Below the pieces are notes generated by a model. The model was given only the letters and a program-made list of their open reading frames with translations, did not search any database and was not told where the DNA came from. This document shows positions 1,444 to 64,000 of a stretch of 64,000 nt of DNA, piece after piece. Within the stretch, counting starts at the first letter, position 1. Each line of letters begins with the position of its first letter. The translations under genes and the position numbers were made by a program. Source of the DNA: a virus (taxonomy: Duplodnaviria > Heunggongvirae > Uroviricota > Caudoviricetes); the IMG/VR virus record IMGVR_UViG_3300037467_003075, positions 1 through 64,000 of that record. One strand, given 5' to 3'.

Positions 1444-1477
1444 TGGGTTCTATTTATTTCGTCAAGGAGGATGAAAT

Positions 1478-10373: not shown

Positions 10374-10760
10374 TTACCATTGATAATTTTTTGATTTATT
10401 TCTTTCTTCTTTTCTTGCCATTATTTCTTCCGCGAAATTTTGCTTAATATATTTTTTGATATATAACACTGTAATTATGTAGCTGATTGGATTATTAATT
10501 TTCATACCAACGCCACCAAATTTATAAATGGAAGCGTGAATAAGGTTATCGGAAAAGTCATCGTGAAAAAGACTTCCGCTCCAACCACTATCGTATCTCC
10601 ATTTATACTTATTTAGTTCACTTATAAATTTCTTGTGGCTGGCCCACCCAGAAATCTTAGTCTCGCTTTTTGTCATGGTCAAGTGAGTAAGCCATACAGC
10701 AAGAAAACAAATTATTGCAATTACCAGGCCAATAGAGACAACCACGAACAAAGCCTCCAT
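10374..10760 (-). CDS. membrane-anchored protein
   Basis: N-terminal transmembrane helix. Confidence 0.4.
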   Translation of the reverse strand: MEALFVVVSIGLVIAIICFLAVWLTHLTMTKSETKISGWASHKKFISELNKYKWRYDSGWSGSLFHDDFSDNLIHASIYKFGGVGMKINNPISYIITVLYIKKYIKQNFAEEIMARKEERNKSKNYQW

Positions 10761-21563: not shown

Positions 21564-22454
21564 TTATACTGTAGCTGCTATTCTTACAGCTTCCCTTTGC
21601 TGTTTCAGCGACAATTCCCTTGCGGCCCGATTATTGATAACCGGAATATCGAAATCAATCCCAAGTGAATCAAGTAACTTCTTTGCTTTAAGTTCAATGT
21701 TAGATTCTTCTATAATGCTCTGAGCAATAAACTCAAGCTGCTCCAGCGTAGAATTTTTAACCAGATTAACGAAATTGTGGCATAGCATCGCAAACTTAGC
21801 GCCGTCTTCGGCCTTGCGAATCGGATGGAACAAGCGGAACTCAATTGTAGAATAATGGCTGTGAAAGATATTTACCCACCGATAGCGACCAAGATACACC
21901 TGGTCTGCTTCAATTGCTCCACGCGAACGATTAATTGCATCCATCAGGCTGTTCATGCTTTGTGCATTCGCGACATCACGATTCCGATCATGTATAATCG
22001 TCTTGTAGATTTCAGGAATCATCTGGCAGTATCTATTTTTATACCGACGATTCTTGACAAAAAGGAACATTATATCCTCGATCTGCTTGGCAAAATGCGC
22101 CATTTTGAGCTTATCGTGGAATGTAAAATCACCAGCGCTCACATGGATATGCAAGCTAGCTCTGCCGCTTGCCGACCAACCATAGCTTGTAATAGCTTCA
22201 AATACTTCCCCAAGCGGAGCCAGGTCATGTAACGGCTCAGTAACAAACTCTACACCATACATGCTGTATGAATCGCTCCAATGGGCATTGTGGAGACTTC
22301 CGTCTCGCTTAATCTGGCAGTATGGAATACCAGTAATCCTGCGAGGGTTAGTTCGTGAATACCCCTCAATTTCAAGTCCCACTGTCCGGTTCAAAATAAA
22401 ACCAGCATAATTCAATTCTTCCCTTTTTTTACGCGGCATATATGCCCCTCCCAT
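21564..22454 (-). CDS. GS-like amidoligase (Amidoligase_2 family), paralog 2
   Basis: VGLEIEGY ... RDGSL ... YGVEFVTEP ... SLHIHVS ... RWVNIFHSHYSTIEFRLFHP. Confidence 0.6.
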   Translation of the reverse strand: MGGAYMPRKKREELNYAGFILNRTVGLEIEGYSRTNPRRITGIPYCQIKRDGSLHNAHWSDSYSMYGVEFVTEPLHDLAPLGEVFEAITSYGWSASGRASLHIHVSAGDFTFHDKLKMAHFAKQIEDIMFLFVKNRRYKNRYCQMIPEIYKTIIHDRNRDVANAQSMNSLMDAINRSRGAIEADQVYLGRYRWVNIFHSHYSTIEFRLFHPIRKAEDGAKFAMLCHNFVNLVKNSTLEQLEFIAQSIIEESNIELKAKKLLDSLGIDFDIPVINNRAARELSLKQQREAVRIAATV

Positions 22455-22500
22455 TTGTTTTATACTTATATTATAAATGATGGTGAAAAAGAAGTCAACT
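22455..22500 (-). promoter_or_regulatory. sigma-A-type promoter upstream of amidoligase paralog 2
   Basis: rc: gTTGACTtctttttcaccatcattTATAATATaagtataaaac. Confidence 0.45.
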
Positions 22501-22513
22501 AGTGAGTAGGGAA

Positions 22514-23167
22514 TTACTCAGTCCCTGCCCACACAATGTTTCTGTCCACGAACCGCTCTTCATTCCAAACTTTGTCCTCGTACACCAGCTCTTTGCCGTT
22601 CGGACGATAAATATAATGGCATCGTAGGCAAGTTGCGCCTTTGATGTCGAACATTTCCATGCGCACAATAAAGTCTGTGCCTCCGATGTTCCAGTCATAA
22701 AATTTGCTTGATTCGTTGTCAAGCGGATGTGCCGACTTCGCTTTCGCGGCACGATTATTAAAATCAGTAGGACTAAATGGATTAATGTACCGTGTTCGCG
22801 TTATGCCCTCCCTTTCCTCTCTGTGGAAAATCCAGCGCATGCGATGTTCCATTACGCCGAACCAGCTCTTGCTGGCTTCCTCTCTCTCTGTCATGTTCCA
22901 CCTGGGAAGATCATAAGGAGGGAAATCATCTGCTTTCATTGAATAGAATGGTGGCTCTTCAAACGAACTGGAAACCATGCCAAAATCTGACTCGTTGCTA
23001 CTGCTAGGCTCTTCTGTATCGTCAAAAAGGTCATCTTCATCTGACTCGTCTACAGGTAGAGGCACAGCATCATTATGGCGGATAGTCTCATCATCGTTTG
23101 TAATAAACCAAGAAGTGCTATCCCAACCATTTTGTTGCGGCCGAGCTGGTTGTGTAGGTCTAGGCAT
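22514..23167 (-). CDS. hypothetical acidic protein
   Basis: 217 aa with a D/E/S-rich N-terminal half. Confidence 0.4.
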   Translation of the reverse strand: MPRPTQPARPQQNGWDSTSWFITNDDETIRHNDAVPLPVDESDEDDLFDDTEEPSSSNESDFGMVSSSFEEPPFYSMKADDFPPYDLPRWNMTEREEASKSWFGVMEHRMRWIFHREEREGITRTRYINPFSPTDFNNRAAKAKSAHPLDNESSKFYDWNIGGTDFIVRMEMFDIKGATCLRCHYIYRPNGKELVYEDKVWNEERFVDRNIVWAGTE

Positions 23168-23187
23168 TTTTCATATCCTCCTTATAA

Positions 23188-24291
23188 TCAATTAACTGAT
23201 TCCAACAAAAAGTCTTCTCTCTTTGTAGCATACCCGTCTTGAAATCCTTCTTTGTATCCTTTGTCGTAGGATATGGCAATTTTGTTGTTCATTTCTTCTT
23301 CTAAAGAAGCTCTTCCTTTTGCCCACCCTTCAATCCAGACATTTGACTCCATGTTACGGATGTATTCTTGTAATGTTTCCAACTCATTTGTGCTTAGCTT
23401 AGTCGTAATGGTATGGAGATCGATTTCTGACGGCGCGACCCCCTCTGCGCCGTTCAAAAAAAAATAGCTTTCATCATATTCGAACCACCCTGAGTAGTTT
23501 TCCTGAAAGGAGATTGGCGTTTGGAGCAGCTGAATCATTGCCTCATCCTTAGATGTATCAAATTTGTAGATTCCATGTCTTTTTGGCTCAAGAGAAGACA
23601 CATCCTCAAAGCTCACATTTACTGTCAGATGCTCTTCATTGGCGTCTGAAATTGCATTCTTAAGAAACAATTCCACGCTAGCAAATATAATAACATTTAA
23701 GCTGTCGATCATGTACATTGTGATTGGATTGTCGTTCCTGATGATATACATCAAATTTTTGTTCTTCTTAGGAACAAAAGCCGTTGTAAAGGAACCGCTA
23801 AGCTGCTCAGCTGCCCAAACAAGGCCATCGTCATTAATAATGTCGCCTTTTGTGTCTAGTAAGCGGAAAATAACTTCGCTGTCAACTTCGGCCGCACGAT
23901 ACAGATTGTGCTTTGCAAACAGCATATCGTCATTTTGAATCATTCCATTATGAACGCCAACATAGCGGTGCGATTCAATTGGATGGTTATTTAGATTGTT
24001 CTTCTCAGAACCTTTTGTACCCATGCGGGTATGAATAAGCACGTTCTTTGTGCTTTTATTCAAGTAGCGAGTGTTAAAATGGCTAAATGCCGTTGTCCGA
24101 CACAATTCCGCCGCCCGCATAGGATATTTAAAGATACTTTGATTATTCTTAGTAAAGAAAGCAAAGCCAGTTGAATCGCGGCCGCGTATTTCATTCTCAA
24201 CTGCAATATTTCTTGCCAGGAGACGCAAATACTGCATTTCCTCGCTTGTTCGATTCTTCGGAAAAATAAGGATTCCACCTATTCCACACAC
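23188..24291 (-). CDS. class-II glutamine amidotransferase (Ntn, GAT-II) family protein, paralog 1
   Basis: Starts MCGIGG (nucleophilic Cys2); internal HNGMIQND-like motifs. Confidence 0.65.
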   Translation of the reverse strand: MCGIGGILIFPKNRTSEEMQYLRLLARNIAVENEIRGRDSTGFAFFTKNNQSIFKYPMRAAELCRTTAFSHFNTRYLNKSTKNVLIHTRMGTKGSEKNNLNNHPIESHRYVGVHNGMIQNDDMLFAKHNLYRAAEVDSEVIFRLLDTKGDIINDDGLVWAAEQLSGSFTTAFVPKKNKNLMYIIRNDNPITMYMIDSLNVIIFASVELFLKNAISDANEEHLTVNVSFEDVSSLEPKRHGIYKFDTSKDEAMIQLLQTPISFQENYSGWFEYDESYFFLNGAEGVAPSEIDLHTITTKLSTNELETLQEYIRNMESNVWIEGWAKGRASLEEEMNNKIAISYDKGYKEGFQDGYATKREDFLLESVN

Positions 24292-29201: not shown

Positions 29202-30368
29202 TTAGACTGTAGGAAACAGCGCAGTGAGAGCTTGTTGGTGACATTTTGCGCAGTAGTAAGTGTTGTCGTTTGCTGCACCTTCATTGTAGGCAGCGTGCAC
29301 TTCATGCTCTTGCAACGCATCTTCACATTCGGCACAGAATACAATTTCGTTCTCTTCCTCGCCGTCTTCTTCATCGACGCCAGCGGCCTGTGCACTGGTA
29401 TAGATAATGACCTCGCCAGTGATAGGATCAAGTTCTCCTTCGATAATCATACCAATGGAATCGGATGCGGAGACACGAGTACTGTTTGTGCTATTCGTAC
29501 CCCTGGTATTCCAGTATTCATTATTAGTGTATGTTACCTTCGACACACTGGATGCAATGAGAATGCTCACAGGCTCACTAATCATGGTTTCGTAGGAATC
29601 GGCTGTCGAATCCAACATAACATAATTATTTGCTTTCAGCTCGTATTCCTTGAGCGTGAAAGTCTCACAGATATTAAACCGTTTGCCTACGCGGCGCAGC
29701 TTATTGAAGCTGTCAAGAATGAATTTCTTTTCAGAATTGAAGAACAGCACGCCAGCCTCTTCCCAATAGACAAAATCCATTGGACGATCTTGTTTCACAA
29801 TGTGAACAAGGTGAGGCTGTGCCTTGTGTGCAAAAGCCAAGGCGAACATGCCGCGCAGCTTTGTTTCCTCAAGCGCATTACGTAGTCCTTGATACGTAAT
29901 CTTGTCTTGATTATAATAATTGATTAACTGATAGATGATCTCGCTGTCAACTTCGGCAATACGTTCGAATCTTCCTTCGTATTGCTTAAATAGTTCATCG
30001 TCATTGGAGATTGTGCCGTTATGAACGCCGACAACGTTGCCGATGTCAAACGGATGGTTATTGTTATTATTGTCGGGCTTGCCTTTGGTGTAATACCGTG
30101 TATGAGAGATAATAGAGGCAGTATTATCATCGATATTCCTGATAATCGAATCATATTGCTCATCGAATGTCGTGAACATTTTTGCCTCCACAGCAGCCTT
30201 GTGCATCTCATAAGAAGAACCATCGCGAAGAAATGATACCAGGCCAGTAGCATGGTGCCCACGATCTTGCGTCTCGACCAAAATCTCATCGAACAAGTAA
30301 CGAATCGCGGCCCACATATTCTCCGTCCGCTCTTTTTTCAACAAAACAATCCCCGAAATACCACACAT
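29202..30368 (-). CDS. class-II glutamine amidotransferase (GAT-II) family protein, paralog 2, with C-terminal zinc ribbon
   Basis: Starts MCGISG; C-terminal CAECE...CAKCH; near-consensus promoter upstream at 30385-30420. Confidence 0.65.
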   Translation of the reverse strand: MCGISGIVLLKKERTENMWAAIRYLFDEILVETQDRGHHATGLVSFLRDGSSYEMHKAAVEAKMFTTFDEQYDSIIRNIDDNTASIISHTRYYTKGKPDNNNNNHPFDIGNVVGVHNGTISNDDELFKQYEGRFERIAEVDSEIIYQLINYYNQDKITYQGLRNALEETKLRGMFALAFAHKAQPHLVHIVKQDRPMDFVYWEEAGVLFFNSEKKFILDSFNKLRRVGKRFNICETFTLKEYELKANNYVMLDSTADSYETMISEPVSILIASSVSKVTYTNNEYWNTRGTNSTNSTRVSASDSIGMIIEGELDPITGEVIIYTSAQAAGVDEEDGEEENEIVFCAECEDALQEHEVHAAYNEGAANDNTYYCAKCHQQALTALFPTV

Positions 30369-30384
30369 TACAACATCATTCCCT

Positions 30385-30425
30385 TCGAAATTTTTAATCT
30401 GTTTTTATATTATAAATGCATTATA
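30385..30425 (-). promoter_or_regulatory. sigma-A-type promoter upstream of GAT-II paralog 2
   Basis: rc: cTTGACAcctggttataatgcattTATAATATaaaaac. Confidence 0.45.
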
Positions 30426-30502
30426 ACCAGGTGTCAAGTAGAAATATTGATTATTTTGGAGCAGCAACCAATATTAGATCACTGCTCCGTTATAATGCAA
30501 TA

Positions 30503-31606
30503 TTATACTGCAGCGGAGGAGCGGATAACCTGAATAGCTTGCAATTCATTTGCAGTAAACAGATCGTAATTGTCAAAAACGTCATTCTGCTGTTGAAGTA
30601 AAACTGCACACTCAAGCTTGAGCGTTTCGACAATAATCTCTTTGTTGGTATCGAATGTGCAGTTAGCGTCTAATAATTGACCGACAATAACCAGTATTTG
30701 TTCCATGGTCGCATGCTTTGCAAAATTAACCATATGTGTGACCAACTCGACATATGCCTCCACCATGTCAGCACTTTTCTGTGGGTAGAAATAACGGAAC
30801 TCGACCGTCTTTCTATATGTGGCATAAGCATCAAAATTAAGTCCCATATATCTGGTGTCTGAAAATTTTACGCTACCGATATTATACAAGTCCAGTCTTC
30901 CAATCGCACGAAGAACCTGGCTCCTATATTCGGAAAGTGGGCGGCAGTACTGACTCGTGAAACGATACTCTTCTGTTACCGAATAAATAAACGGTTCAAT
31001 TCCAACCGTCAATGCAAGCAACTTCTGAAAGTCGTGTACAGTATAATCTTCTACTTCAACATGAATATGTAGGCCAGCTGTATTGTCAACATGCCAGCCG
31101 TTGCCGTCAAGCCAGTCATACATTTTGTAAATCGGAAGTGTATTGGAAAGCGGTTCACATTTGGCCTCAATGCCGTAATCGTCCGCCTCAACGTACCCAG
31201 AGCCATCACACTGATAACATTCAATTGCATTTGTACCTTCGCAACGTGGACATTTCACATAAGAGCGACCATCGCAATGATCGCAGTTTATTTCACATTC
31301 ACCATCGCATTCGCAGCAAACGTTGCCGTCCTCATCTTTCCCGCTTCCGCTGCACTCGTCACAAGTTTCATATCCATTGTTGCAGTGTTCGCAGTGAATT
31401 TCCCCATCGCTGTCGCAGTCTGGGCATTCTACATGTCCACTACCTTGACAGCTGCCGCATTCGGTATCGCCATTGCGTAGGCTGCCATCGTCTTCAATAT
31501 CCCATTCGCACCCATCTATTACGCGTCCATAAACGCGGCTATTGACGTATCCCTCAAGCTCTACCCCGAATCGACGGGGAGTATTAATTCCATGGTTTTT
31601 GCACAT
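30503..31606 (-). CDS. GS-like amidoligase, paralog 4, with inserted Cys-rich (DnaJ-like CxxCxGxG) zinc-finger module
   Basis: FGVELEGY ... DDGSL ... about 110 aa of CxxC repeats (CGSCQGSGHVECPDCDSDG...) ... GLHIHVEV ... YMGLNFDAYATYRKTVEFRYF. Confidence 0.6.
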   Translation of the reverse strand: MCKNHGINTPRRFGVELEGYVNSRVYGRVIDGCEWDIEDDGSLRNGDTECGSCQGSGHVECPDCDSDGEIHCEHCNNGYETCDECSGSGKDEDGNVCCECDGECEINCDHCDGRSYVKCPRCEGTNAIECYQCDGSGYVEADDYGIEAKCEPLSNTLPIYKMYDWLDGNGWHVDNTAGLHIHVEVEDYTVHDFQKLLALTVGIEPFIYSVTEEYRFTSQYCRPLSEYRSQVLRAIGRLDLYNIGSVKFSDTRYMGLNFDAYATYRKTVEFRYFYPQKSADMVEAYVELVTHMVNFAKHATMEQILVIVGQLLDANCTFDTNKEIIVETLKLECAVLLQQQNDVFDNYDLFTANELQAIQVIRSSAAV

Positions 31607-31624
31607 TGCAATCCGCCTCCTTGA

Positions 31625-31672
31625 TTTATCTTATAGTTGTATTATAATTGATTCTAACTTAAGCTGTCAACT
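31625..31672 (-). promoter_or_regulatory. sigma-A-type promoter upstream of amidoligase paralog 4
   Basis: rc: gTTGACAgcttaagttagaatcaatTATAATAC. Confidence 0.45.
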
Positions 31673-31678
31673 GAAAAA

Positions 31679-32419
31679 TCACTTAATCTTTTCGTCTAAT
31701 ATTTGACGCAAATGCGTTTCCTTATCATCGTAATTGCCTGTCATGATCTGAAACTCAGGCACCATGCTGTCAACAAACCAATCAGCATTAGCAATATACT
31801 GATTCGCTTGCTTCACAGTGCCGTCAGGCAAATAAACATCGATCATCATGCGATTGTACATATTGTACTCAGGACTTGCATCAGGATTATACCCTTCTGT
31901 GTAATCGTAGGAATTTACGACAATATGCAGCGGAATTTCAAAATATGTGCCGTACACTTTGTCACTTTCGTTCTCCGTTAATTTCGTAACCGGGAATCCT
32001 CTACCACCAGTAGCGTACATTATTTGACTCTTAACATAGGCATTAGGGATAATGTTAACGCCACCTTCTGCCTCAATGTTCTCGACATATTTGAGAATGC
32101 CGTAAGTAAACATCGGCACCATTTCACTGTACGGAGCCATTGCCGCCCCCACGGTTTTAGAATCAAATAATTGATTCATAACATGCTCAGTAAACTGATA
32201 GTTATTGTTGCGAATCAGTAACTTAGCCAGGCTGTCGGCACCTTCATCATAAGCTATGTCTGTCATAACTCTCGACCAACAAGAGATACAAAGTCTTTTA
32301 CCGCTAAAATGTTCGCTACCGGGCAAAAAATAGACAGTGAATTTAGCGGAATTGTTATTGCACTTTTCACACATTACAACTCGATTTTTCAATTTTACTA
32401 TCTCCTTTGTTTTACGCAT
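31679..32419 (-). CDS. AIG2/GGCT-like (gamma-glutamyl cyclotransferase fold) protein, paralog 1, with N-terminal zinc ribbon
   Basis: FTYGILKY (YGSL-type motif) and C-terminal EGYNPDASPEYNMYNRMMIDVYLPDGT...A.QY, paralogous to 33360-34034. Confidence 0.5.
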   Translation of the reverse strand: MRKTKEIVKLKNRVVMCEKCNNNSAKFTVYFLPGSEHFSGKRLCISCWSRVMTDIAYDEGADSLAKLLIRNNNYQFTEHVMNQLFDSKTVGAAMAPYSEMVPMFTYGILKYVENIEAEGGVNIIPNAYVKSQIMYATGGRGFPVTKLTENESDKVYGTYFEIPLHIVVNSYDYTEGYNPDASPEYNMYNRMMIDVYLPDGTVKQANQYIANADWFVDSMVPEFQIMTGNYDDKETHLRQILDEKIK

Positions 32420-32786
32420 ATTGGAATGAGAAAGATTCTACAACTGTGTTCTCTTTGACGTATGGATTCGCCTTATCAAGCACTGTCACCAATACAATAT
32501 TATATTTTTCGATTGCAAATATTGTTGACAGGTTCTTATCCTTGTCGGATATTAGAATTTGTTTGCCGCTGTTATTGTACATTTCCAACTTCGTCCCTAA
32601 TCCCAAGATAGCACTGGCAATTTGATACTTGTTTAGTCTGCGTTGCTTAATACGTTTGATTGCGTGATTTGTAGCAATCAGTCGAAAAAATTTCCCACTG
32701 ACGAAAAAACCAGTAATTTCGTTTTCGTTTAACATTTCCATATACTTTGCACCAACCTTCTCTTTTTTTGATACAAGTATATGCAA
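32412..32786 (-). CDS. hypothetical protein
   Basis: 124 aa ORF. Confidence 0.35.
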   Translation of the reverse strand: MHILVSKKEKVGAKYMEMLNENEITGFFVSGKFFRLIATNHAIKRIKQRRLNKYQIASAILGLGTKLEMYNNSGKQILISDKDKNLSTIFAIEKYNIVLVTVLDKANPYVKENTVVESFSFQYA

Positions 32787-32803
32787 GTTTGCTATCTTTT
32801 ATG

Positions 32804-33007
32804 CTATTGTCCCATATTTCTTTTTTGTGCATCAAGAAAGCAACTAAAGCACTCTATAAATCCCATAGTAAAAATAGATGTTTCATCTTTATCTAGCGGC
32901 CTTCCTCTCCTTGCTTCAAAAACTTTGATTTTTTGTTCCACATTTGACAAAAGGCCAACATCGGCAAGCCTATCCCTCATTTCATCTGACATAATCACGC
33001 ATATCAC
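32804..33007 (-). CDS. hypothetical protein
   Basis: 67 aa ORF. Confidence 0.3.
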   Translation of the reverse strand: MICVIMSDEMRDRLADVGLLSNVEQKIKVFEARRGRPLDKDETSIFTMGFIECFSCFLDAQKRNMGQ

Positions 33008-33359
33008 CTTCCCTATTAAATATAATATTGTATGCTAGGCCAGCGTATGTGCCAGCCTAGCACGTTACTTCTAAAGTCCAATGTTTTACTCTCATAATTC
33101 AATTATAATATAATTATCTAAGTATCGTCAAGTAGTGGCATAAATATCTACCTCCATTATTGTCGATAGCAACTAATGTCTTTCACTATACTTATCGTCT
33201 AACATTTGACTATTTACTCAACAATCCCATTGTGGGAAAGGAGCCTGTGTGCAAATGTTACCAGCTACTACCTATTGAGCTGAAATGCACCCTTATTCAT
33301 CAAACTGACCGATAACCTCTAGTCTTTCACATTGTAGCTATCTAATATTATATACAGTT

Positions 33360-34034
33360 TTAAGCGCGATAACCGCTAAAAACGTATAAAACATAGTCGC
33401 CATGTGGAATAGCGCGGCAACCATTCTTTGCCCTGGTGTCCGCACAGAAGTATGCCCACGCTTCCACCTGTGTACCATCGGAGAGTGTAACATTAACCAG
33501 CTTGCGATTGTAATGGTTATATTTTGGATTTCGTTTTGGATTGTACCCCTCAAGGCTGTCAAGGTCAGCCAGCATACGGACATAGTCTTTTTCGTCAACC
33601 CACATAACTTCGCCATGCACTTTCTTGTCACCTTCGAACATGTAAGGCAAACTGTATCCCCTAACAAACAATTCACCCTGTATTGTTGCCGCCTCTTCGC
33701 GAATTGTTTTTTTATGGAAATAATATCTGTGGTTACTCATTCCTCTGCGTAAGGTGCCATAAACAAAGAACGGATATTGTTTTTCGATTCCAGTTTCGCC
33801 TTGAACACGAACCAAACTACCAATAGAATCCAAAATTAGATTGAAGTCATAGGACAACATCCAATATGTTCCGTCAAATAAGAAAGTCCAATCCTTGCCG
33901 TTGTCCGTTGCGGATTCATGTAATTCGCGGGTGTCGCGCCGCTTTCCTTCATATCCAACAACAATCTTATTGTTTCTCATGCCGTATATATTGATCTTAC
34001 CCCAATACGTTTGCTTGCTTGCTAAAACTGGCAT
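33360..34034 (-). CDS. AIG2/GGCT-like (gamma-glutamyl cyclotransferase) protein, paralog 2
   Basis: PFFVYGTLRRGMSNH (GGCT YGSL-type motif) ... LDSLEGYNPKRNPKYNHYNRKLVNVTLSDGTQVEAWAYF. Confidence 0.6.
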   Translation of the reverse strand: MPVLASKQTYWGKINIYGMRNNKIVVGYEGKRRDTRELHESATDNGKDWTFLFDGTYWMLSYDFNLILDSIGSLVRVQGETGIEKQYPFFVYGTLRRGMSNHRYYFHKKTIREEAATIQGELFVRGYSLPYMFEGDKKVHGEVMWVDEKDYVRMLADLDSLEGYNPKRNPKYNHYNRKLVNVTLSDGTQVEAWAYFCADTRAKNGCRAIPHGDYVLYVFSGYRA

Positions 34035-48273: not shown

Positions 48274-49044
48274 ATGACAACTAAAGTAGTCAATCGTCAT
48301 CATGGCGATTCATACGATGTCTATATTGGTCGCGGGAGTGTTTGGGGGAATCCTTACACTCATCTTGACAGTACGCAAGCACTATACAAAGTAGATAGCA
48401 GAGAGCAAGCAATAGAGGAATACTTTGGCTATATATTTGCACAACGAAACCTTCTTTCAAGGCTTAGTGAATTAAAAGGCAAGGTGCTTGGCTGCTACTG
48501 CCATCCTAAATCTTGCCACGGTCACATTTTGGCTCAGCTAGCTGACACAACATGGTGGAAAGACGATAAGCTGATTCTTGAGTGTTCAACAAAAGGTGAC
48601 ATTCGTTTCTCTGCTTTTGGCGCGGAAGTAACAGTGTTCGGTAAGAAAGCAACTGTAGAGGAGCATTATCAACTATCTAAACGATTCGTTACAAACACAT
48701 TAGACATGATGAACAATAACCTGTATGCTCCAAAAAGTATTTACGATGTAAAGGGAAAGAATGCGAAAACGAAGGATATGAGCCTGTATTTGATTTTTGT
48801 CAACGGGTTTTATTTCCCACCAGATTTTCGTCTTGAGTTCTATAAATGGATGTGGCTAAAATACCTTGATGAAAACCCAGAGCTTGTTGCTTATGCATCT
48901 AGATTTGACGATTATAATGACATTTTTAAGGGAAAATCAATTATTTGCCAGGCAGATTGTATTAGGCAGTACATAAAGCAAGGCAGAGACAGTGTTGTTA
49001 GCGATATTAAAGATTTTTGTGAAATGATAGGAGTTGAAGCATAA
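48274..49044 (+). CDS. DUF4326-domain protein with C-terminal extension
   Basis: GRGSVWGNPY ... LGCYCHPKSCHGHIL carries the GNP and CHG motifs. Confidence 0.5.
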   Translation: MTTKVVNRHHGDSYDVYIGRGSVWGNPYTHLDSTQALYKVDSREQAIEEYFGYIFAQRNLLSRLSELKGKVLGCYCHPKSCHGHILAQLADTTWWKDDKLILECSTKGDIRFSAFGAEVTVFGKKATVEEHYQLSKRFVTNTLDMMNNNLYAPKSIYDVKGKNAKTKDMSLYLIFVNGFYFPPDFRLEFYKWMWLKYLDENPELVAYASRFDDYNDIFKGKSIICQADCIRQYIKQGRDSVVSDIKDFCEMIGVEA

Positions 49045-57546: not shown

Positions 57547-57597
57547 AAAGAGCATGGTTGAAAATTATATTCAACTACGCTCTTTATTTTTTACGTG
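57547..57597 (+). terminator. rho-independent terminator after the SGNH hydrolase gene
   Basis: Imperfect 13-bp stem (GAGCATGGTTGAA ... TTCAACTACGCTC) followed by TTTATTTTTT. Confidence 0.45.
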
Positions 57598-57669
57598 GCG
57601 AAGGTTAGACGAATCGAACGCCTATCGACAGGGTTGGAATCTGCCGTGTTACCATTACACTAAACCCCC
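57596..57669 (-). tRNA. tRNA-Trp (anticodon CCA)
   Basis: Cloverleaf read by hand: acceptor GGGGGTT/AACCTTC, D stem GTGT/ACAC, anticodon loop TTCCAAC, T arm AGGCG-TTCGATT-CGTCT, encoded CCA. One A-C mismatch in the anticodon stem. Confidence 0.5.
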
Positions 57670-57677
57670 CAATAATA

Positions 57678-57750
57678 TACGCCCACAAGGTGAATTGAAC
57701 ACCTAATTACGACTTAGAAGGTCGTTGTTATATCCTTTTAACTATGCAGG
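57678..57750 (-). tRNA. tRNA-like fragment (Arg-TCT-like anticodon arm and T arm; no pairing acceptor)
   Basis: ACGAC-CTTCTAA-GTCGT and AGGTG-TTCAATT-CACCT are present, but the 5' acceptor strand is missing. Confidence 0.25.
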
Positions 57751-57823
57751 CAAACGTGCGGAGAGCTAGGTAACTCTCCATATTAAATGTATGAGAAGGT
57801 AGCATATGAAATGCAATCACACG

Positions 57824-57898
57824 TGGTGCAGGGCAGGGTAGTCGAAACCCTATCATCTGAGTGGAAGTCAGATATCATATCCATTAGACCAGCCCCAC
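57824..57898 (-). tRNA. tRNA-Gly (anticodon TCC)
   Basis: Acceptor GTGGGGC/GCCCTGC, anticodon arm TCTGA-CTTCCAC-TCAGA, T arm AGGGT-TTCGACT-ACCCT, CCA. Confidence 0.55.
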
Positions 57899-58273
57899 AT
57901 ATTTAATTACTGAATCATAAACCATTCATTTTTATGGTTATCTTTGTTGTTTGCATATATTTCGTTTGCTGTATCAAGCATGTAGCCATCTGTTATAGCT
58001 TTCAGTATTCCCTTTGTTTCTTTGCACATATTAATATCGTCCCAAGTAAGGCCAATAAGCTTATTCATTGCTTCTTTCTGCCCTTCTGTTCCATATATAT
58101 TAATAATATGCAAACATTTCTGTAAATCATGAACCATAACAACTACCTCCATATATAATTTATATACGTATCTATGGGCGGAGCTTCTTTTTATAGTGGT
58201 TAGCTTTTTAAACTATGCCGCCCTATAAAACCACTGTGTGCACTATGTTCCCACTAAGGAGTGCGTTATACGT

Positions 58274-58347
58274 TGGTGTGGACAGTGGGGATTGAACCCA
58301 CACCCTAACGTTGGCAACGTCAAGTTCTTCCATTAAACTATGTCCAC
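58274..58347 (-). tRNA. tRNA-Gly (anticodon GCC)
   Basis: Acceptor GTGGACA/TGTCCAC, anticodon loop TTGCCAA, T arm GTGGG-TTCAATC-CCCAC, CCA. Confidence 0.6.
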
Positions 58348-58534
58348 ATAATACGGGTGGCTCCCTCCGAACCTTAATACGACCACCCCATGCAACCTAC
58401 ATAGGAGAATATTTTCGGTTGCACACCCTGGCTGTCTTTTGCTTATTTCGCGGCTCCTATAATGACTAGATAAGCAGTACCAGCTTAATGTCCGTTTTTA
58501 TTAAGGGATTAAACGGAGCCGAAATCAACCGATG

Positions 58535-58600
58535 CAAGGGGACGGATTCGAACCATCTAGTCGCGCACTAAGCCCTCCGTTTGGACTTCCCTTACGTGTG
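58535..58600 (-). tRNA. tRNA-like element, atypical (about 63 nt, no clear D arm)
   Basis: T arm GATGG-TTCGAAT-CCGTC and acceptor GTAAGGG/CCCTTGC are present, but the region is too short for a canonical cloverleaf. An adjacent 50-nt hairpin lies at 58598-58650. Confidence 0.25.
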
Positions 58601-58665
58601 CTTGTTTTTCTAAGTCGGCATCTCGCCTCTGAGAGGATAAAACAAGCAAAACCCAGTGATTAACG

Positions 58666-58761
58666 TGGTACAGGAGGAGGGACTCGAACCCACAGCCGCG
58701 CACTAATCTGGTGCATACGAGAGGTATAAGCTCTCCGCTCTGCCAATTGAGCTACTCCTGC
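58666..58761 (-). tRNA. long (96 nt) tRNA-like gene with about 25-nt variable region, anticodon TAT
   Basis: Acceptor GCAGGAG/CTCCTGT, D arm GCTC-AATTGGCA-GAGC, anticodon arm GAGAG-CTTATAC-CTCTC, T arm GTGGG-TTCGAGT-CCCTC, CCA. Confidence 0.4.
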
Positions 58762-58765
58762 ATAT

Positions 58766-58841
58766 TGGATGCCGAATGAGGGAATCGAACCCCCAATAGA
58801 AGATTACAAATCTACTGTTATTCCATTTAACTAATTCGGCA
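58766..58841 (-). tRNA. tRNA-Thr (anticodon TGT)
   Basis: Acceptor TGCCGAA/TTCGGCA, anticodon loop TTTGTAA (one stem mismatch), T arm GGGGG-TTCGATT-CCCTC, CCA. Confidence 0.5.
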
Positions 58842-58912
58842 TATATCAATCGGCATTTATCGGTTGCCTAATCACCGACCCTTTTCCATATATGAAGGAT
58901 GAAACTACGTTA

Positions 58913-58987
58913 TGGTAGGGAATAAGGGAATCGAACCCTTGCCCCAAGCTCCCAAAGCCCGTGTTCTAACCATTATACTAATTCCCT
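58913..58987 (-). tRNA. tRNA-Pro (anticodon TGG)
   Basis: Acceptor AGGGAAT/ATTCCCT, anticodon arm CGGGC-TTTGGGA-GCTTG, T arm AAGGG-TTCGATT-CCCTT, CCA. Confidence 0.5.
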
Positions 58988-59156
58988 ATAAATAATATAG
59001 CTGTCACTCTTGCCAACATCGTATCAGTTGGTGATAAGTTAGCAGTATAGCCTAGATGTTCAGCACTACTAACGCTTTACCCTTTTCCAATGTGACAGGA
59101 TACAGGACGCAACATCCTCCTGAATCGTCGGTAAATCCCTTTAGCTATATTACGTT

Positions 59157-59234
59157 TGGTCGGGAAGGTGAGAGTCAAACTCACAGTTGTACAAGGTTTG
59201 AGCTTGTTGCGTCTGCCTATTCCGCCACAACCCG
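59157..59234 (-). tRNA. tRNA-like, short variable arm, anticodon CAA (Leu codon UUG); two T-T mismatches in acceptor stem
   Basis: Anticodon arm ACAAG-CTCAAAC-CTTGT (perfect stem), T arm GTGAG-TTTGACT-CTCAC, CCA. Confidence 0.35.
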
Positions 59235-59238
59235 ATAA

Positions 59239-59324
59239 TACCGCCAAGGAGACTCGAACTCCTACGCCCAATTAAGAGCAGCAGATTTTAAATCTGCTTT
59301 GTCTACCGATTCCATCATGGCGGC
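59239..59324 (-). tRNA. tRNA-Leu (anticodon TAA), type II
   Basis: Anticodon arm GCAGA-TTTAAAA-TCTGC, long variable arm, T arm GGAG-TTCGAGT-CTCC, acceptor GCCGCCA/TGGCGGT. Confidence 0.55.
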
Positions 59325-59504
59325 AAAGAATACAGAATACACTTGCTTGCGCTTCCCGCGCTTAAAATTTGTGTTACGTGAGAGCATCCATGCCAACTAT
59401 GCACTTAGGTACGCCTACCACATAACTTCGTCAAGTTATCATGCATGTTGGACACTTACTGGACACTCATTGTTCCGCATTACACGGTTGTAATCAAGAC
59501 GCTC

Positions 59505-59580
59505 AAATTAGTTGGGACTCGAACCCAAAAGGACTTTTTGGAAGAAAGTTTGCTAGCCATTAGCACTGTATTTGTTTTGC
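59505..59580 (-). tRNA. tRNA-like, degenerate (Gly-TCC-like anticodon arm; acceptor pairs poorly)
   Basis: ACTTT-CTTCCAA-AAAGT and TTGGG-TTCGAGT-CCCAA are present; only 4 of 7 acceptor pairs form. Confidence 0.25.
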
Positions 59581-59647
59581 TGTAAGCGTCTTACGTTCTT
59601 ATATTATTATTATATTACATTTCCTTGATTTTGTCAAGGGTAAAACG

Positions 59648-59738
59648 TGGCGGGTGGCGAGGGATTTGAACCCCCACAGGCTATCAACCCTTAAGCGCTT
59701 TTCAAGAGCGCCCCCTTACCAGATTCGGACAGCCACCC
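59648..59738 (-). tRNA. tRNA-Ser (anticodon TGA), type II
   Basis: Acceptor GGGTGGC/GCCACCC, anticodon arm GCGCT-CTTGAAA-AGCGC, long variable arm, T loop TTCAAAT, CCA. Confidence 0.6.
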
Positions 59739-59741
59739 ATT

Positions 59742-59820
59742 TGGAGAGCAAGATCGGACTCGAACCGACGAATAATAGCGATTTTGCAGATCGCCGCGTT
59801 TGCCTCTTCGCCACTTGCTC
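59742..59820 (-). tRNA. tRNA-Cys (anticodon GCA)
   Basis: Acceptor GAGCAAG/CTTGCTC, anticodon arm GCGAT-CTGCAAA-ATCGC, T arm GTCGG-TTCGAGT-CCGAT, CCA. Confidence 0.55.
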
Positions 59821-59882
59821 CATAATAATTCAAGGCACATTTTAATTAGCTTCTCCCCCATAGTAAAAGGTTTTTAAATAAT

Positions 59883-59950
59883 GGCGGGGGAGCTTGGAAT
59901 TGAACCAAGTATCTTCTGTTTACAATACAGACGCTTCACCTATTAGGTAA
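59883..59950 (-). tRNA. tRNA-like 3' fragment (Thr-TGT-like anticodon arm, T arm and CCA; no 5' acceptor strand)
   Basis: TCTGT-ATTGTAA-ACAGA; CTTGG-TTCAATT-CCAAG; CTCCCCC-G-CCA with no matching GGGGGAG upstream. Confidence 0.25.
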
Positions 59951-59974
59951 GTTTTGCTGTGAGTGCCTTACGTT

Positions 59975-60014
59975 AGGAGAGGACTTAGCAAACCTCTCCA
60001 AGCTAAGTTTTTTC
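59975..60014 (+). terminator. terminator-like hairpin plus T6 inside the tRNA array (plus orientation)
   Basis: GGAGAGG-acttagcaaa-CCTCTCC ... AGCTAAGTTTTTT. Confidence 0.3.
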
Positions 60015-60082
60015 GGCGGACAACAAGGGAAAACAGCTATTAGTTTTATTACCTACAAAACCTTGTTATAGTATCCGCAACG

Positions 60083-60158
60083 TGGTACCCTCGGTCAGAG
60101 TCGAACTGACACTGTATGCGTTCTAAGCGCATCTTCTCTGCCATTGGAATACGAGGGC
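60083..60158 (-). tRNA. tRNA, standard 76-nt type-I scaffold but anticodon TAG (Leu codon CUA)
   Basis: Acceptor GCCCTCG/CGAGGGT, anticodon arm ATGCG-CTTAGAA-CGCAT, variable CAGT, T arm GTCAG-TTCGACT-CTGAC, CCA. Confidence 0.45.
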
Positions 60159-60159
60159 A

Positions 60160-60245
60160 TGGTACCAGTTGATGGAGTCGAACCACCCGAGCCGTTAGAC
60201 AACAGATTTACAGTCTGTCCCGCTTCCTCTACGGTATAAACTGGC
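60160..60245 (-). tRNA. tRNA-Tyr (anticodon GTA), type II
   Basis: Acceptor GCCAGTT/AACTGGT, anticodon arm ACAGA-CTGTAAA-TCTGT, long variable arm, CCA; 1 nt from the previous tRNA. Confidence 0.55.
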
Positions 60246-60351
60246 ATGTTATTAAACTAGGCGCGATAGTAACTTTGTTACTCATTTACAGTATACTAAT
60301 ATCAAATTTAGGTTTGTGTGTATTGTGTTGCTGTGTGCGCCTAACGTGGTA

Positions 60352-60425
60352 TGGACAGTGACAGATTCGAACTGCCAACGCTGAGTGCTTCAAACTCACG
60401 CTCTACCAATTGGAGCTAACTGTTC
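60352..60425 (-). tRNA. tRNA-Phe (anticodon GAA)
   Basis: GAACAGT-TA-GCTC-CAATTGGTA-GAGC, anticodon arm TGAGT-TTGAAGC-ACTCA, T arm GGCAG-TTCGAAT-CTGTC. Confidence 0.55.
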
Positions 60426-60599
60426 ATATTAATTTCATCTTCTTCATTATCTTCGTAATCTTTTGTGAACCCGAAGAAGCATTCATTTCGACTTTCTAGC
60501 CACTGAATAAAATCGTTTAGCCATTCATCCATTGTCTTTTCTGTATTAACAGCACCATTAATTGTTACCCATTTTTCCATGATTTTTTATCTCCCTTAC
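60426..60599 (-). CDS. small acidic protein; stop codon overlaps tRNA-Phe 5' end
   Basis: 57 aa (MEKWVTING...); RBS AGGGAGATAAAAAATC; the TAG stop falls within the GAACAGTTAGCTC tRNA start. Confidence 0.25.
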
Positions 60600-60600
60600 G

Positions 60601-60692
60601 TGGCGGACAGAATGGGATTCGAACCCATGCACGATTATTAGTCGCCTATTCCCTTAGCAGAGGAACCTCTTGAACCACTTGAGTATCTATCC
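60601..60692 (-). tRNA. tRNA-Ser (anticodon GCT), type II
   Basis: Acceptor GGATAGA/TCTGTCC, anticodon loop CTGCTAA, long variable arm, T arm ATGGG-TTCGAAT-CCCAT, CCA. Confidence 0.55.
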
Positions 60693-60836
60693 ATGATATT
60701 GTTTTTTAGCATAAAACAACCAAGAGTCATTTAACATTCTGATTTGTTCAATATCTTTCCTTTGAAAAGCTCTTGTTAGTTGATTTTTTTAACCATTGAG
60801 GCATTTTAATCACCTACGTTTTTTATTTAGGTTTTA

Positions 60837-60909
60837 TGGGGCGCACAGGAGTTGAACCTGCCTAGTACAGATTAAAAGTCTGTTGCATCTGCCGCTTTGC
60901 TAGCGCCCC
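60837..60909 (-). tRNA. tRNA-Lys (anticodon TTT)
   Basis: Acceptor GGGGCGC/GCGCCCC, anticodon arm ACAGA-CTTTTAA-TCTGT, T arm GCAGG-TTCAACT-CCTGT. Confidence 0.55.
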
Positions 60910-61250
60910 GTATTTTCAAATGCACAAGTTGGACATTTTTTAATGTAGCCAATATTGTGTTTAGTACAAACATATCCATTTCCTAGTTTCTTATCGCTTG
61001 TCTTTCGTTTCATTGTAGGCACTCCTTTTTGTTTTGCTGTCTTGCATGTTTTTTTAATCTTTTACTCATAACATAATTCTTTTGCAGATGCTTTGGGTGT
61101 TTACTTGACATGTCTCCACATAAACAACCTTTTTTACTGCATTTAACTCTGTCTTTTCTTTTTATTCCGTAGGGTTTCATTTGTTTTCCCTCCGTTGTTG
61201 TTTATATTATGATTATAATACATATACTTCTTTTTGTCAAGGAATAAATA

Positions 61251-61634
61251 TCAATTTATTTCAGAACTTTCTTCGACCCAACGACCATTTTCATCCTTTA
61301 CTTCAACCTTGATGTTTTTGGATTCCATTGATCTTTCTACTTGTTTTTCAATTGACTCTAGACCTTGTTTCTCCATCATAATTTCCGCTGTTTTACGCTT
61401 GTGCCAGTTCTGAAACTCTTTAGTTGCAACACAGCGCCTAAACGCCTCTGTGCGGTTTCTAGACTGCTCCCTGTGTTCTACGCTTTGTCCTACTGCTCCT
61501 GATTCAAGGTGAGTGAAACGAACGCCAGAGCTTGTCTTATTGACCTTTTGACCACCATTTCCAGGTGCGCGGAAAGTATCGATGCGAAAATCGTTTCTTG
61601 TTACTGAAAACAACAATTCTCTTCCCATCGCCAC
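61251..61634 (-). CDS. ArfB/ICT1-like peptidyl-tRNA hydrolase (class-I release-factor GGQ domain)
   Basis: GNGGQKVNKTSSGVRFTH parallels ArfB GAGGQHVNKTSTAIHLRF; basic C-terminal tail. Confidence 0.6.
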   Translation of the reverse strand: MAMGRELLFSVTRNDFRIDTFRAPGNGGQKVNKTSSGVRFTHLESGAVGQSVEHREQSRNRTEAFRRCVATKEFQNWHKRKTAEIMMEKQGLESIEKQVERSMESKNIKVEVKDENGRWVEESSEIN

Positions 61635-61718
61635 TACTCCTTAATTATTGTTTATGCGGTTTTGGCGAATCAGGTCGCCCGCTTATTTCCCTCTTTAAAC
61701 CAACCGCAAAGGAAACGT

Positions 61719-61795
61719 GGTTGCTACGCTACTGGAATTGAACCAGATTAACCCTAGCTTATGAAACTAGGTCGGATACTTACCCGCCGCCAGCT
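61719..61795 (-). tRNA. tRNA-like with CAT anticodon arm; acceptor stem does not pair (possible pseudo-tRNA)
   Basis: CTAGT-TTCATAA-GCTAG, T arm CTGG-TTCAATT-CCAG; no complementary acceptor strands. Confidence 0.3.
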
Positions 61796-61802
61796 ATAAT
61801 TT

Positions 61803-61877
61803 TGGTGGCTCTGGCAAGAATTGAACTTGCGACATACCGCTTATGAAACGGTTGTTCTCCCACTGAACTACAAAGCC
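61803..61877 (-). tRNA. tRNA-Met (anticodon CAT)
   Basis: Acceptor GGCTTTG/CAGAGCC, D arm TAGTTCAGTGGGAGAAC, anticodon arm ACCGT-TTCATAA-GCGGT, T arm GCAAG-TTCAATT-CTTGC, CCA. Confidence 0.6.
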
Positions 61878-62213
61878 ATTATTTTGATTTTCTACTTAAA
61901 ATATAATACTCAACTAACCAAAACGGAAGCAAGATGGCTCCAACAATAAACATAAGTATGACAAATAGTCCACTTTTAAATCTTTTGTCTTCTTCACTGT
62001 ATTCCCAAGCTTTGCCGAAAAAGTACCCGATAATTTTTCCTGTCATTATAGACCATCCTTTAAATTTTATCTAGCTTTTCCTTGAATTTTTCAACTCTTC
62101 TCGCGCCAGTTAAAATCCTTCTTTCTTCTACGCATGAAGCACAATTGCATATTTGCCTTTCAACTTTACGCTTTGGTTTGGGATAGATTAAATTTCTTAG
62201 CCATTCCATAAGA

Positions 62214-62435
62214 TTACTCCATCTCAAATTGCTTTAATGCTCTTAGGTAAGCATTGTTATAACAACCTTCAAACATTCTGTCTAATGCTTCCTTGTTGTT
62301 AGATAAGTCTTTTCTAATATGGCATTTAGCATATGGATAAACAACCTGATAATAACTAATTACCCTAATATCCCCAATTATCTCTTCTATTTTCTCAAGT
62401 GAAGAGCAAAACTCCTCAAATGATAGCTTATTCAT
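62214..62435 (-). CDS. hypothetical protein (trimmed; the longer ORF would overlap two tRNAs)
   Basis: ATG after GGAGGAAGG at 62435; the upstream extension would cover tRNA-Asp and tRNA-Ile. Confidence 0.35.
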   Translation of the reverse strand: MNKLSFEEFCSSLEKIEEIIGDIRVISYYQVVYPYAKCHIRKDLSNNKEALDRMFEGCYNNAYLRALKQFEME

Positions 62436-62464
62436 TAGTCCTTCCTCCACTTTAAAGATAGTTT

Positions 62465-62539
62465 TGGCGGCCCCAAGGAGAATTGAACTCCTGTCTGACG
62501 GCTGACAACCGACTGTAATATCCACTATACGATGGAGCC
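62465..62539 (-). tRNA. tRNA-Asp (anticodon GTC)
   Basis: Acceptor GGCTCCA/TGGGGCC, anticodon loop TTGTCAG (one T-T in stem), T arm AGGAG-TTCAATT-CTCCT, CCA. Confidence 0.5.
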
Positions 62540-62544
62540 ATATA

Positions 62545-62620
62545 TGGTAGGAGCGGCAAGAATTGAACTTGCATTGGGCGATTATCAGTCGCCTATTCTT
62601 CCATTGAATTACGCTCCAAT
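62545..62620 (-). tRNA. tRNA-Ile (anticodon GAT)
   Basis: D arm ATTC-AATGGAA-GAAT, anticodon arm GGCGA-CTGATAA-TCGCC, T arm GCAAG-TTCAATT-CTTGC, CCA; the 1-72 pair is mismatched. Confidence 0.55.
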
Positions 62621-62650: not shown

Positions 62651-63106
62651 TTAGCTTATACACTTATCGGTTTCATACTCAATTTCCATGTGACAATTTA
62701 AACAAACAAGGATACATTTATCCAATTCTTCTTTTAGTTTGTCCCAAGATTTTGTTATTCCACTTGAAATATCAAAAGACTTTTCTTCTGGATTGACATG
62801 GTGAAAAGAAAGCGCCCTCTGACACTTATTGTACCCGCATATGCAACACTTTCCGCCTTTGTATTCTGTGGCCTTGTCTCTTAACTCTTGCCTTCTTCTT
62901 GCTACTTGTGCAACATTTTTCTTTATTTTTTGTTGCTTTCTTTCATCCTTTGGAATGTGCGGATTTTTACTTGTATTATGTTTTCCAAACGGGGAGCAGT
63001 CTAGGCAATATTTTCTATTTGCCAAATTCCTTGTTTTTCCATCAATGACTTTTGAATATGGTACTCGTTTTCCACATATTAAACATTCTCTTTTGTTGTT
63101 ACTCAT
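62651..63106 (-). CDS. HNH endonuclease with zinc ribbons
   Basis: CLICG...CLDC; SFHHVNPEEK...CLNCH (HNH motif). Confidence 0.55.
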   Translation of the reverse strand: MSNNKRECLICGKRVPYSKVIDGKTRNLANRKYCLDCSPFGKHNTSKNPHIPKDERKQQKIKKNVAQVARRRQELRDKATEYKGGKCCICGYNKCQRALSFHHVNPEEKSFDISSGITKSWDKLKEELDKCILVCLNCHMEIEYETDKCIS

Positions 63107-63291: not shown

Positions 63292-64000
63292 TTAGTCCAC
63301 AATTAAAGATTTAAGAATATTTTCAATGACATCGACAACAATACTGTTTCCCGCCATTTTATAAATCTGACTGTTAGATATGTTGTTTTCTTTTAGCCTC
63401 AGATAATCTTCATCATCAAATCCCATGAGTCTCATACATTCAAGCGGTGTCAACTTTCTGATTCTGCATTCGTGATAGACTTTTTTAGCGTCCTTATAAT
63501 CTCTTGCGCTAATTGTAGGAGATAAACCTTCTGAGCTATAGACTCTTCGGTTTTGCTCGTATCCACTATCACCAACCATACCTATTTGTATGATTTTTGG
63601 TTGTCTATTCCCGCCTTGCATGGTACTTAATGTCGGAGAAATTCCATCGGGGTCGTACACTCTTCTGATCTGTTCATTGCCCTTGATATCGAGCATCCCC
63701 ACTTGCTTAATACTATTGCTCGTTTCAACTACATGTGTTCTTCTTCCGCTATTCACGAACGCCGCGGAAATTCCCTTAGAATAGTTGGCATCGATACAGT
63801 AGCTAATTCCTTCGCCGTCGAACGATAGTTCTCTTGGTGAATCATCTGCTCGTTCCCTTTGTATTAGAGCCTCCAGAAGTGATTTCGCTTTCTCGTTAGA
63901 TATGTAATACCTAGCATCAACATTTTCTTCTAGAATGTGCTTTAGTCTCATCCCGCTATCAAATGCGGTTGGGAAACTAAATTCTTGATCGTCGCGGATA
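63292..64000 (-). CDS. DNA (cytosine-5)-methyltransferase, C-terminal part; 5' end lies beyond the window
   Basis: ENV motif near the window edge; C-terminal RKLTPLECMRLMGFDDEDY and MAGNS. The frame remains open upstream to nt 64000. Confidence 0.55.
   Translation of the reverse strand, partial: IRDDQEFSFPTAFDSGMRLKHILEENVDARYYISNEKAKSLLEALIQRERADDSPRELSFDGEGISYCIDANYSKGISAAFVNSGRRTHVVETSNSIKQVGMLDIKGNEQIRRVYDPDGISPTLSTMQGGNRQPKIIQIGMVGDSGYEQNRRVYSSEGLSPTISARDYKDAKKVYHECRIRKLTPLECMRLMGFDDEDYLRLKENNISNSQIYKMAGNSIVVDVIENILKSLIVD

Follow-up and report, generated by a model that had tools for sequence, protein, structure and literature searches.

A stand-alone GGQ-domain relative of class-I release factors encoded within the tRNA array of a likely phage or phage-like element

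The window, by which we mean the whole 64,000-nucleotide stretch of DNA that was analysed, carries a run of 19 tRNA genes, and within that run, on the same strand, lies a gene for a short protein with the GGQ motif of peptide chain release factors. The features of this region are as follows.

57596..62618, minus strand: 19 tRNA genes, on the strand of the GGQ gene (ARAGORN and Rfam tRNA matches)
61637..61642, minus strand: Shine-Dalgarno sequence AAGGAG (read directly from the sequence)
61251..61634, minus strand: mechanical open reading frame with a GTG start (ORF list)
61251..61628, minus strand: gene for a stand-alone GGQ (RF-1 domain) protein of 125 amino acids (ORF list, PF00472, PHROG 3122, database protein P0001)
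61212..61240, minus strand: perfect sigma-70 consensus TTGACA-17-TATAAT (promoter scan, 12/12 positions; a consensus match only)
61010..61180, minus strand: ORF of 56 amino acids, very basic (18 lysines plus arginines, 4 cysteines), immediately downstream of the GGQ gene
60900..61022, minus strand: ORF of 40 amino acids, zinc-ribbon-like, second downstream of the GGQ gene (no family match)

A preliminary description of this DNA had placed the gene at 61251-61634. That open reading frame exists, lies on the minus strand, encodes the GGQ motif and ends in a TAA stop codon at 61251-61253, but its start is more likely to be the internal ATG. The AAGGAG sequence is 8 nt from the ATG at 61628 and only 2 nt from the GTG at 61634, and because of this spacing we regard the ATG as the most likely start, which gives a product of 125 amino acids. 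A database protein from a 162,770-bp JGI contig, P0001, is identical to this product; since it too is 125 amino acids long and begins MGRELL, the gene is taken to span 61251-61628. The product includes GNGGQKVNKTSSGVRFTH, and its GGQ codons are found at 61548-61556 (residues 25-27). The Pfam RF-1 model, PF00472, whose gathering score is 35, matches at 71.9 bits (E=5.6e-20) and aligns over profile positions 5-111 of 116, and PHROG 3122 gives a full-length match (E=2.5e-27, 96.6 bits) that puts residues 3-123 on profile positions 19-131 of 136. Judged by these sequence matches, the ORF is a real gene, far beyond what chance would produce.

The gene was also said to be embedded in a tRNA array, and so it is. 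Its flanking tRNA genes are tRNA-Lys(ttt) (60837-60909) and tRNA-Met(cat) (61803-61877), with three tRNAs (Ile-gat, Asp and Met) upstream and the other 16 downstream. The sigma-70 consensus begins 11 nt past the GGQ stop codon, ahead of the two small ORFs and the 16 downstream tRNAs; the predicted promoter would drive the small basic ORFs and these tRNAs independently of the GGQ gene. Similar small ORFs, basic and CxxC, occupy the same slot in the locus of a relative that is 64% identical (L084), and they are not conserved in more distant relatives. The idea that the 56- and 40-residue ORFs supply a basic tail in trans was considered but lacks support across the family, as more than 80 loci revealed no consistent small basic partner downstream of the gene.

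Several further elements of the array and its borders deserve description. The tRNA-Ile(TAT) gene at 58666-58761 (minus strand) has an unusual anticodon and is 96 nt long, its variable region having an insertion of 21 nt (Rfam tRNA score, 54 bits). A degenerate tRNA-like element occupies 61723-61794 on the minus strand, between tRNA-Met and the GGQ gene. Its anticodon loop carries CAU and its T arm is good, but it scores under the tRNA thresholds (17.5 bits with the tRNA-Sec model, E=0.33) and may be a decayed copy of tRNA-Met or tRNA-Ile2. The 318-nt gap at 58348-58665, the position at which L084 has a tmRNA, was considered as the site of a tmRNA gene and rejected, with no match by ARAGORN or Rfam and a fold no better than that of shuffled sequences; it holds a T-arm-like GGTTCGAATCC and a partial tRNA-like fold. 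Just upstream of the array, at 62651-63106 (minus strand), is an ORF for a Cys/His-rich, HNH-endonuclease-like protein of 151 amino acids, for which a Pfam search returned no significant HNH match, and adjoining it at 63292-63951 (minus strand) is the C-terminal part of a C5 cytosine DNA methylase. Phage tRNA arrays are known to be accompanied by HNH genes.

The GGQ protein itself can be divided into three parts.

61425..61613, minus strand: core GGQ peptidyl-hydrolase domain, residues 6-68 (hhalign, AlphaFold2 model)
61329..61421, minus strand: long alpha-helix, residues 70-100, neither basic nor ArfB-like (AlphaFold2, charge count)
61272..61310, minus strand: family-specific C-terminal beta-hairpin KVEVKDENGRWVE, residues 107-119 (118-homologue alignment, AlphaFold2 strands)

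An AlphaFold2 model computed from an alignment of 118 homologues (mean pLDDT 86) contains the fold of release factor domain 3. It begins with a strand at residues 14-19, the GGQ loop, a short helix at 27-31 and strands at 35-40 and 46-49; its C-terminal part consists of a helix at 55-68, the long helix at 70-100 and the hairpin strands at 109-111 and 117-119. Residues G23, G26, Q27, H40, N58 and A62 are invariant in all 118 aligned homologues, W75, E109 and W117 are nearly so, and the block KVEVKDENGRWVE is conserved at the C-terminus. The GGQ motif is kept in 119 of 120 homologues. The family, which counts at least 210 clusters at 50% identity, is under strong purifying selection, judging by its conservation. 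Homology of the helix and hairpin to alpha-7 and domain 4 of RF1 and RF2 was considered, and the alignments differ on it: the Pfam RF-1 alignment reaches residues 116-118, whereas alignments by hhalign to E. coli RF1 and Klebsiella RF2 cover residues 6-68 (probability 99%, 41-42% identity) and stop there. Because they end at residue 68, the helix and hairpin would thus be family-specific at the level of sequence. They may nonetheless mimic the helix alpha-7 and switch-loop region of RF1 and RF2, which reach the decoding centre.

What the protein does not have is the typical basic C-terminal tail with which it had been credited. Residues 76-125 contain 10 lysines and arginines against 12 aspartates and glutamates, for a net charge of -2 and a pI of 5.4, and the tails of 119 homologues have a median net charge of -1 (range, -8 to +4). 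In ArfB the C-terminal tail is positively charged, is needed for ribosome binding and sits in the empty mRNA channel. The GGQ protein has no equivalent basic element, which weighs against the rescue role proposed below, and it is very unlikely to recognise its substrate in the manner of ArfB.

Within the release factor superfamily, the GGQ protein is closest, on both sequence and modelled structure, to domain 3 of RF1 and RF2, then to PrfH, and then to mtRF-R. When the family profile was compared with PDB sequences, the scores were 76.8 bits for RF2, 72.9 for RF1, 63.8 for PrfH, 55.3 for mtRF-R/C12orf65 (over profile positions 6-103), 35.9 for ArfB (positions 13-40 only) and 23.7 for ICT1. NCBIfam models gave partial matches to their domain-3 part, led by prfB at 65 bits and followed by prfA at 62 and 55 and PrfH at 51.5. 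A Foldseek search of the PDB returned ribosome-bound RF2, RF1 and mtRF1 first, with PrfH and mtRF-R next and ArfB at rank 47. RF1/RF2 domain 3 thus has the highest sequence and structural similarity to the GGQ protein, and the two share the pattern GGQ...NKT..S.VR.TH..(S/T)G...R.Q..NK. Unlike RF1 and RF2, however, the GGQ protein is without domains 1, 2 and 4, and therefore cannot read stop codons or contact RF3.

The preliminary description had assigned the protein to the ArfB/ICT1 subfamily, and this assignment does not hold. The ArfB equivalog model NF006718 scores 29.5 bits against a cut-off of 100 and matches residues 8-38 only. Among the 118 homologues the best E-value with ArfB was 6.2e-11, compared with 2.8e-23 with RF2, and none came near the ArfB cut-off, whereas PF00472 was above its Pfam cut-off in every one of them. 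A profile search therefore puts the protein inside the RF-1/GGQ superfamily but outside ArfB. The claimed parallel with the catalytic loop of ArfB is partly borne out, in that the loop does align to ArfB, but it matches RF1 and RF2 at least as well and the ArfB alignment ends at residue 40 of the GGQ protein. ArfB class 1 and ICT1 are defined by a helical insertion, alpha-i, which separates the final two strands of their GGQ domain (Burroughs & Aravind 2019, PMC6514570). In the AlphaFold2 model this insertion is absent, because just five residues part the strands at 35-40 and 46-49, which are the last two of the sheet. Membership in ArfB/ICT1 thus fails on each feature tested (the NF006718 score, the acidic tail and the missing alpha-i insertion) and is largely refuted, and the proper label should be "stand-alone RF-1/GGQ domain protein (PHROG 3122)" and not ArfB.

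PHROG 3122 is already annotated, as "RF-1 domain peptide chain release factor", and members in more than 200 mycobacteriophages carry the SEA-PHAGES label "RF-1 peptide chain release factor". A first search for homologues returned 132 at E<=1e-5, nearly all of 110-135 amino acids, and at least 210 clusters at 50% identity came out of an exhaustive profile search with E<=1e-30, each of them aligned at profile positions of about 2-120. By tblastn, 257 records of catalogued phages were matched, 206 of them Mycobacterium phages; in 209 phage records the match spans 80% or more of the query, with 43-48% identity, and the partial matches in Listeria, Staphylococcus and Salmonella are only short and come from unannotated fragment records. 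A relative is encoded by 421 IMG/VR contigs. A plasmid origin of the family was rejected, since PLSDB was without a full-length member and gave only prfA and prfB matches. Identity to the GGQ protein is at most 68% for any protein on record and below 50% for any cultured phage. We conclude that the GGQ protein is new but belongs, as a divergent member, to a phage family of stand-alone GGQ proteins that is widespread and already annotated.

The closest known systems include the family members from mycobacteriophages of clusters C and M (for example ScottMcG gp204 and prophiT49-2 gp135), which are 43-48% identical over 94-97% of the GGQ protein and share its size, GGQ core and C-terminal hairpin. 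These are high-GC actinophages, whereas the element in the window is about 40% GC and probably from Firmicutes. In cluster M, as in the window, the gene sits inside a tRNA array. In mycobacteria and their phages, one type of tRNA array has been described as having an RF-1-domain gene as its core gene, for which a rescue role was suggested (Morgado & Vicente 2018, PMC5966550). The association of the family with tRNA arrays has thus been noted before; no experimental study of any family member was found in the searchable literature.

The loci of relatives indicate how general this association is. We sampled the best 80 loci of the 421 IMG/VR contigs, taking 5 kb on either side of the gene. At least one tRNA was present in 23 of the 80 and at least five in 12, and a tRNA lay within 500 bp of the gene in 14; 57 loci had no tRNA nearby. 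In these 80 loci the tRNA genes thin out with distance from the gene, with 0.43 per kb at 0-1 kb and 0.18 per kb at 4-5 kb, and 157 of the 195 tRNAs are on the strand of the gene. Linkage to tRNA arrays is thus recurrent but optional: as most relatives have no tRNA nearby, the link is not obligatory and says little about the substrate of the protein. Genes for RtcB and Pth2 were each found within 5 kb in four of the 80 loci, and one or the other in eight.

Clustering of 1,348 ORFs from 81 loci by all-against-all blastp was also used to look for a conserved protein neighbour. None emerged, with no cluster present in more than nine of 80 loci; the commonest was a replication helicase, and the other top clusters were DnaB, DNA polymerase, phosphoesterase and ribonucleotide reductase. 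Neither an S4-domain gene nor any other conserved partner gene was found in the 80 loci. Relatives without tRNAs have the gene beside DNA polymerase, RecA/UvsX, thymidylate synthase or dCMP deaminase (L082, L094, L091 and L087), an early or middle module of replication and nucleotide metabolism. An example is ScottMcG of cluster C (L082), in which the gene lies between DNA polymerase III alpha and UvsX and no tRNA is nearby.

Loci with tRNAs can be considerably richer. In prophiT49-2 of cluster M there are a tmRNA and 24 tRNAs, with the RF-1 gene between tRNA-Asp and tRNA-Glu and followed by an RtcB-like ligase and then a peptidyl-tRNA hydrolase. The 64% identical relative in L084 has the tRNA order of the window and the gene in the same slot, and its array includes a tmRNA (Rfam 86.5 bits, tag GNQLQLVA) between tRNA-Ile(tat) and tRNA-Gly(gcc), at L084 9485-9797, as well as a tRNA with anticodon CTA at 10422-10497, a possible amber suppressor judging by its anticodon. 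Unlike prophiT49-2, the window has no RtcB, Pth2 or tmRNA: tblastn found neither RtcB nor Pth2 anywhere in it, and ARAGORN and Rfam found no tmRNA.

The GGQ domains of RF1, RF2, ArfB, PrfH and mtRF-R act in the ribosomal A site, at the peptidyl-transferase centre, where they hydrolyse peptidyl-tRNA. From this shared behaviour we infer that the protein is a release factor that does not depend on a stop codon. The protein belongs to the RF-1 family, has an intact catalytic motif and the domain-3 fold, lacks the features of ArfB and is recurrently linked to tRNAs; catalytic activity on ribosomes, a role in rescue and a benefit to the element are inferred. We suggest, with a probability of roughly 0.6, that the gene encodes a "mini release factor" that would carry out stop-codon-independent hydrolysis of peptidyl-tRNA on stalled ribosomes and would form, with the tRNA array, a translation-support module. 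The protein combines the GGQ domain of a class-I release factor with a long helix and a small, conserved acidic hairpin bearing a tryptophan. On a stalled ribosome it would occupy the vacant A site, with its GGQ loop placed in the peptidyl-transferase centre, and the peptidyl-tRNA bond would then be hydrolysed with no need for a stop codon. Ribosomes and tRNA would in this way be freed to translate the element's own genes. The mini release factor would be expressed together with the tRNA array, and relatives have a tmRNA, the RNA ligase RtcB or Pth2 in the same module. The conserved helix and hairpin are the obvious candidate for the part that senses stalled ribosomes or contacts the ribosome.

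The earlier proposal of a peptidyl-tRNA hydrolase that rescues ribosomes has therefore survived the loss of the ArfB label. As a stand-alone GGQ domain, the protein is still best read as a codon-independent hydrolase of the rescue type. A further suggestion, that rescue follows RNA damage, receives circumstantial support from those relatives whose gene lies beside tmRNA, RtcB or Pth2, but none of these accompanies the gene in the window.

A more specific version of the mini release factor would make the family a distinct, mainly phage-borne class of rescue factor. The acidic helix and the Trp hairpin would bind close to the decoding centre and would not thread the mRNA channel, so that peptides could be released where ribosomes have stalled on intact mRNA and the A site is empty. 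We offer this tentatively and consider it unlikely as a whole. Ribosomes of this kind are handled poorly by ArfA, ArfB and tmRNA. If the idea is true, the protein could come into play, to give one example, once anticodon nucleases of the host or defences that deplete tRNA have acted, and array and protein would form a two-part counter-defence in which cut tRNAs are replaced and jammed ribosomes are cleared.

One function now assigned to phage tRNA arrays is to counter defences directed at tRNA. That a release factor fragment travels with arrays, together with tmRNA, RtcB and Pth2 in relatives, suggests that phages also carry the means of unjamming ribosomes. The gene itself will not surprise a specialist, but the family poses a clear and testable mechanistic question: how a GGQ domain with neither a codon reader nor a basic tail would find its substrate is well defined and can be answered at the bench, and the family is easy to manipulate genetically in mycobacteriophages.

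Other explanations have to be weighed against the mini release factor. One, which we regard as improbable, is that the protein resembles mtRF-R (C12orf65) and acts on split large subunits that retain peptidyl-tRNA, possibly with a host S4-domain protein (RqcP/Hsp15) in the place of MTRES1. In mtRF-R (PDB 7a5h) there is likewise a stand-alone GGQ domain without alpha-i that is followed by a helical extension, and the alignment between the two is nearly full-length. However, the C-terminal extension of mtRF-R is positively charged (Burroughs & Aravind 2019, PMC6514570), whereas the extension here is acidic. On those subunits mtRF-R works with MTRES1; no partner was detected here, the 80 loci having yielded neither an S4-domain gene nor any other conserved candidate, although a partner may be encoded by the host.

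We place next, as likewise improbable, a role like that of PrfH, in which peptides would be released once a ribotoxin or a defence nuclease has cut the rRNA or tRNA of a ribosome, and RtcB would then repair the RNA. PrfH (RFH), the partner of RtcB2, is a protein of about 200 amino acids with a domain that recognises the decoding centre, whereas the GGQ protein has 125 amino acids and no N-terminal domain; the domain 2/4 module through which PrfH recognises a damaged decoding centre is missing. Its score with the PrfH model TIGR03072, noted above, compares with a cut-off of 166.65 bits and covers only model positions 103-193 of 200. Moreover, RtcB is not in the window and is absent from most loci.

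It is very unlikely, in our opinion, that the protein serves instead to shut off or regulate the host, by causing premature peptide release on host ribosomes or by occupying the A site as an inhibitor. The frequent place of the gene among early and replication genes would fit a takeover of the host, as would the lack of an evident sensor for stalled ribosomes. Nevertheless, a factor that released peptides indiscriminately would damage translation of the element's genes as well, and an invariant catalytic GGQ speaks against inhibition by steric means alone. The presence of tmRNA, Pth2 and RtcB near the gene in relatives likewise suggests repair and not attack. Least probable of all is the ArfB/ICT1 mechanism, in which a basic C-terminal tail probes the empty mRNA channel of non-stop ribosomes and so licenses GGQ hydrolysis: the protein is, like ArfB (YaeJ) and ICT1, short, with a GGQ domain and no codon reader, is of ArfB-like length and has a GGQ loop that aligns to ArfB residues 11-41, but the equivalog score, the acidic tail and the lack of an alpha-i insertion in the model all speak against it, and as family membership it is largely refuted.

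The remainder of the window bears on the nature of the element, which had been called a phage. This is likely but unproven from the window, as no capsid, tail or terminase gene was seen among the genes of its 64 kb; at the DNA level it matched no catalogued phage, and the PADLOC defence-system models gave no match. Its proteins do match the phage families phrog_5156, phrog_9381 (replication initiation by nicking), phrog_200, phrog_15275 and phrog_421, and there are further matches to an HNH endonuclease, thymidine kinase, ClpP, an NlpC/P60 peptidase and RuvB. We consider the element likely to be a large phage or phage-like element. At its left end, 103-2458 (plus strand) encodes a phrog_5156-related protein with weak similarity to the TrwB coupling protein, followed by a Replic_Relax or "replication initiation by nicking" protein, and these genes suggest a plasmid-like or phage-plasmid flavour. 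Several copies of genes for class-II glutamine amidotransferase and Amidoligase_2 proteins, some of them in pairs, and genes for gamma-glutamyl cyclotransferase are found at 10772-11644, 21564-24291 and 29202-34034 (minus strand), and by their sequence similarities they would make up a system for modifying peptides or metabolites. Amidoligase-type modification systems of this sort are typical of large phages and conjugative elements. Finally, 48274-49044 (plus strand) encodes a protein with DUF4326 and NADAR similarity, resembling the antitoxin associated with DarT1, which is a candidate counter-measure to defence based on ADP-ribosylation.
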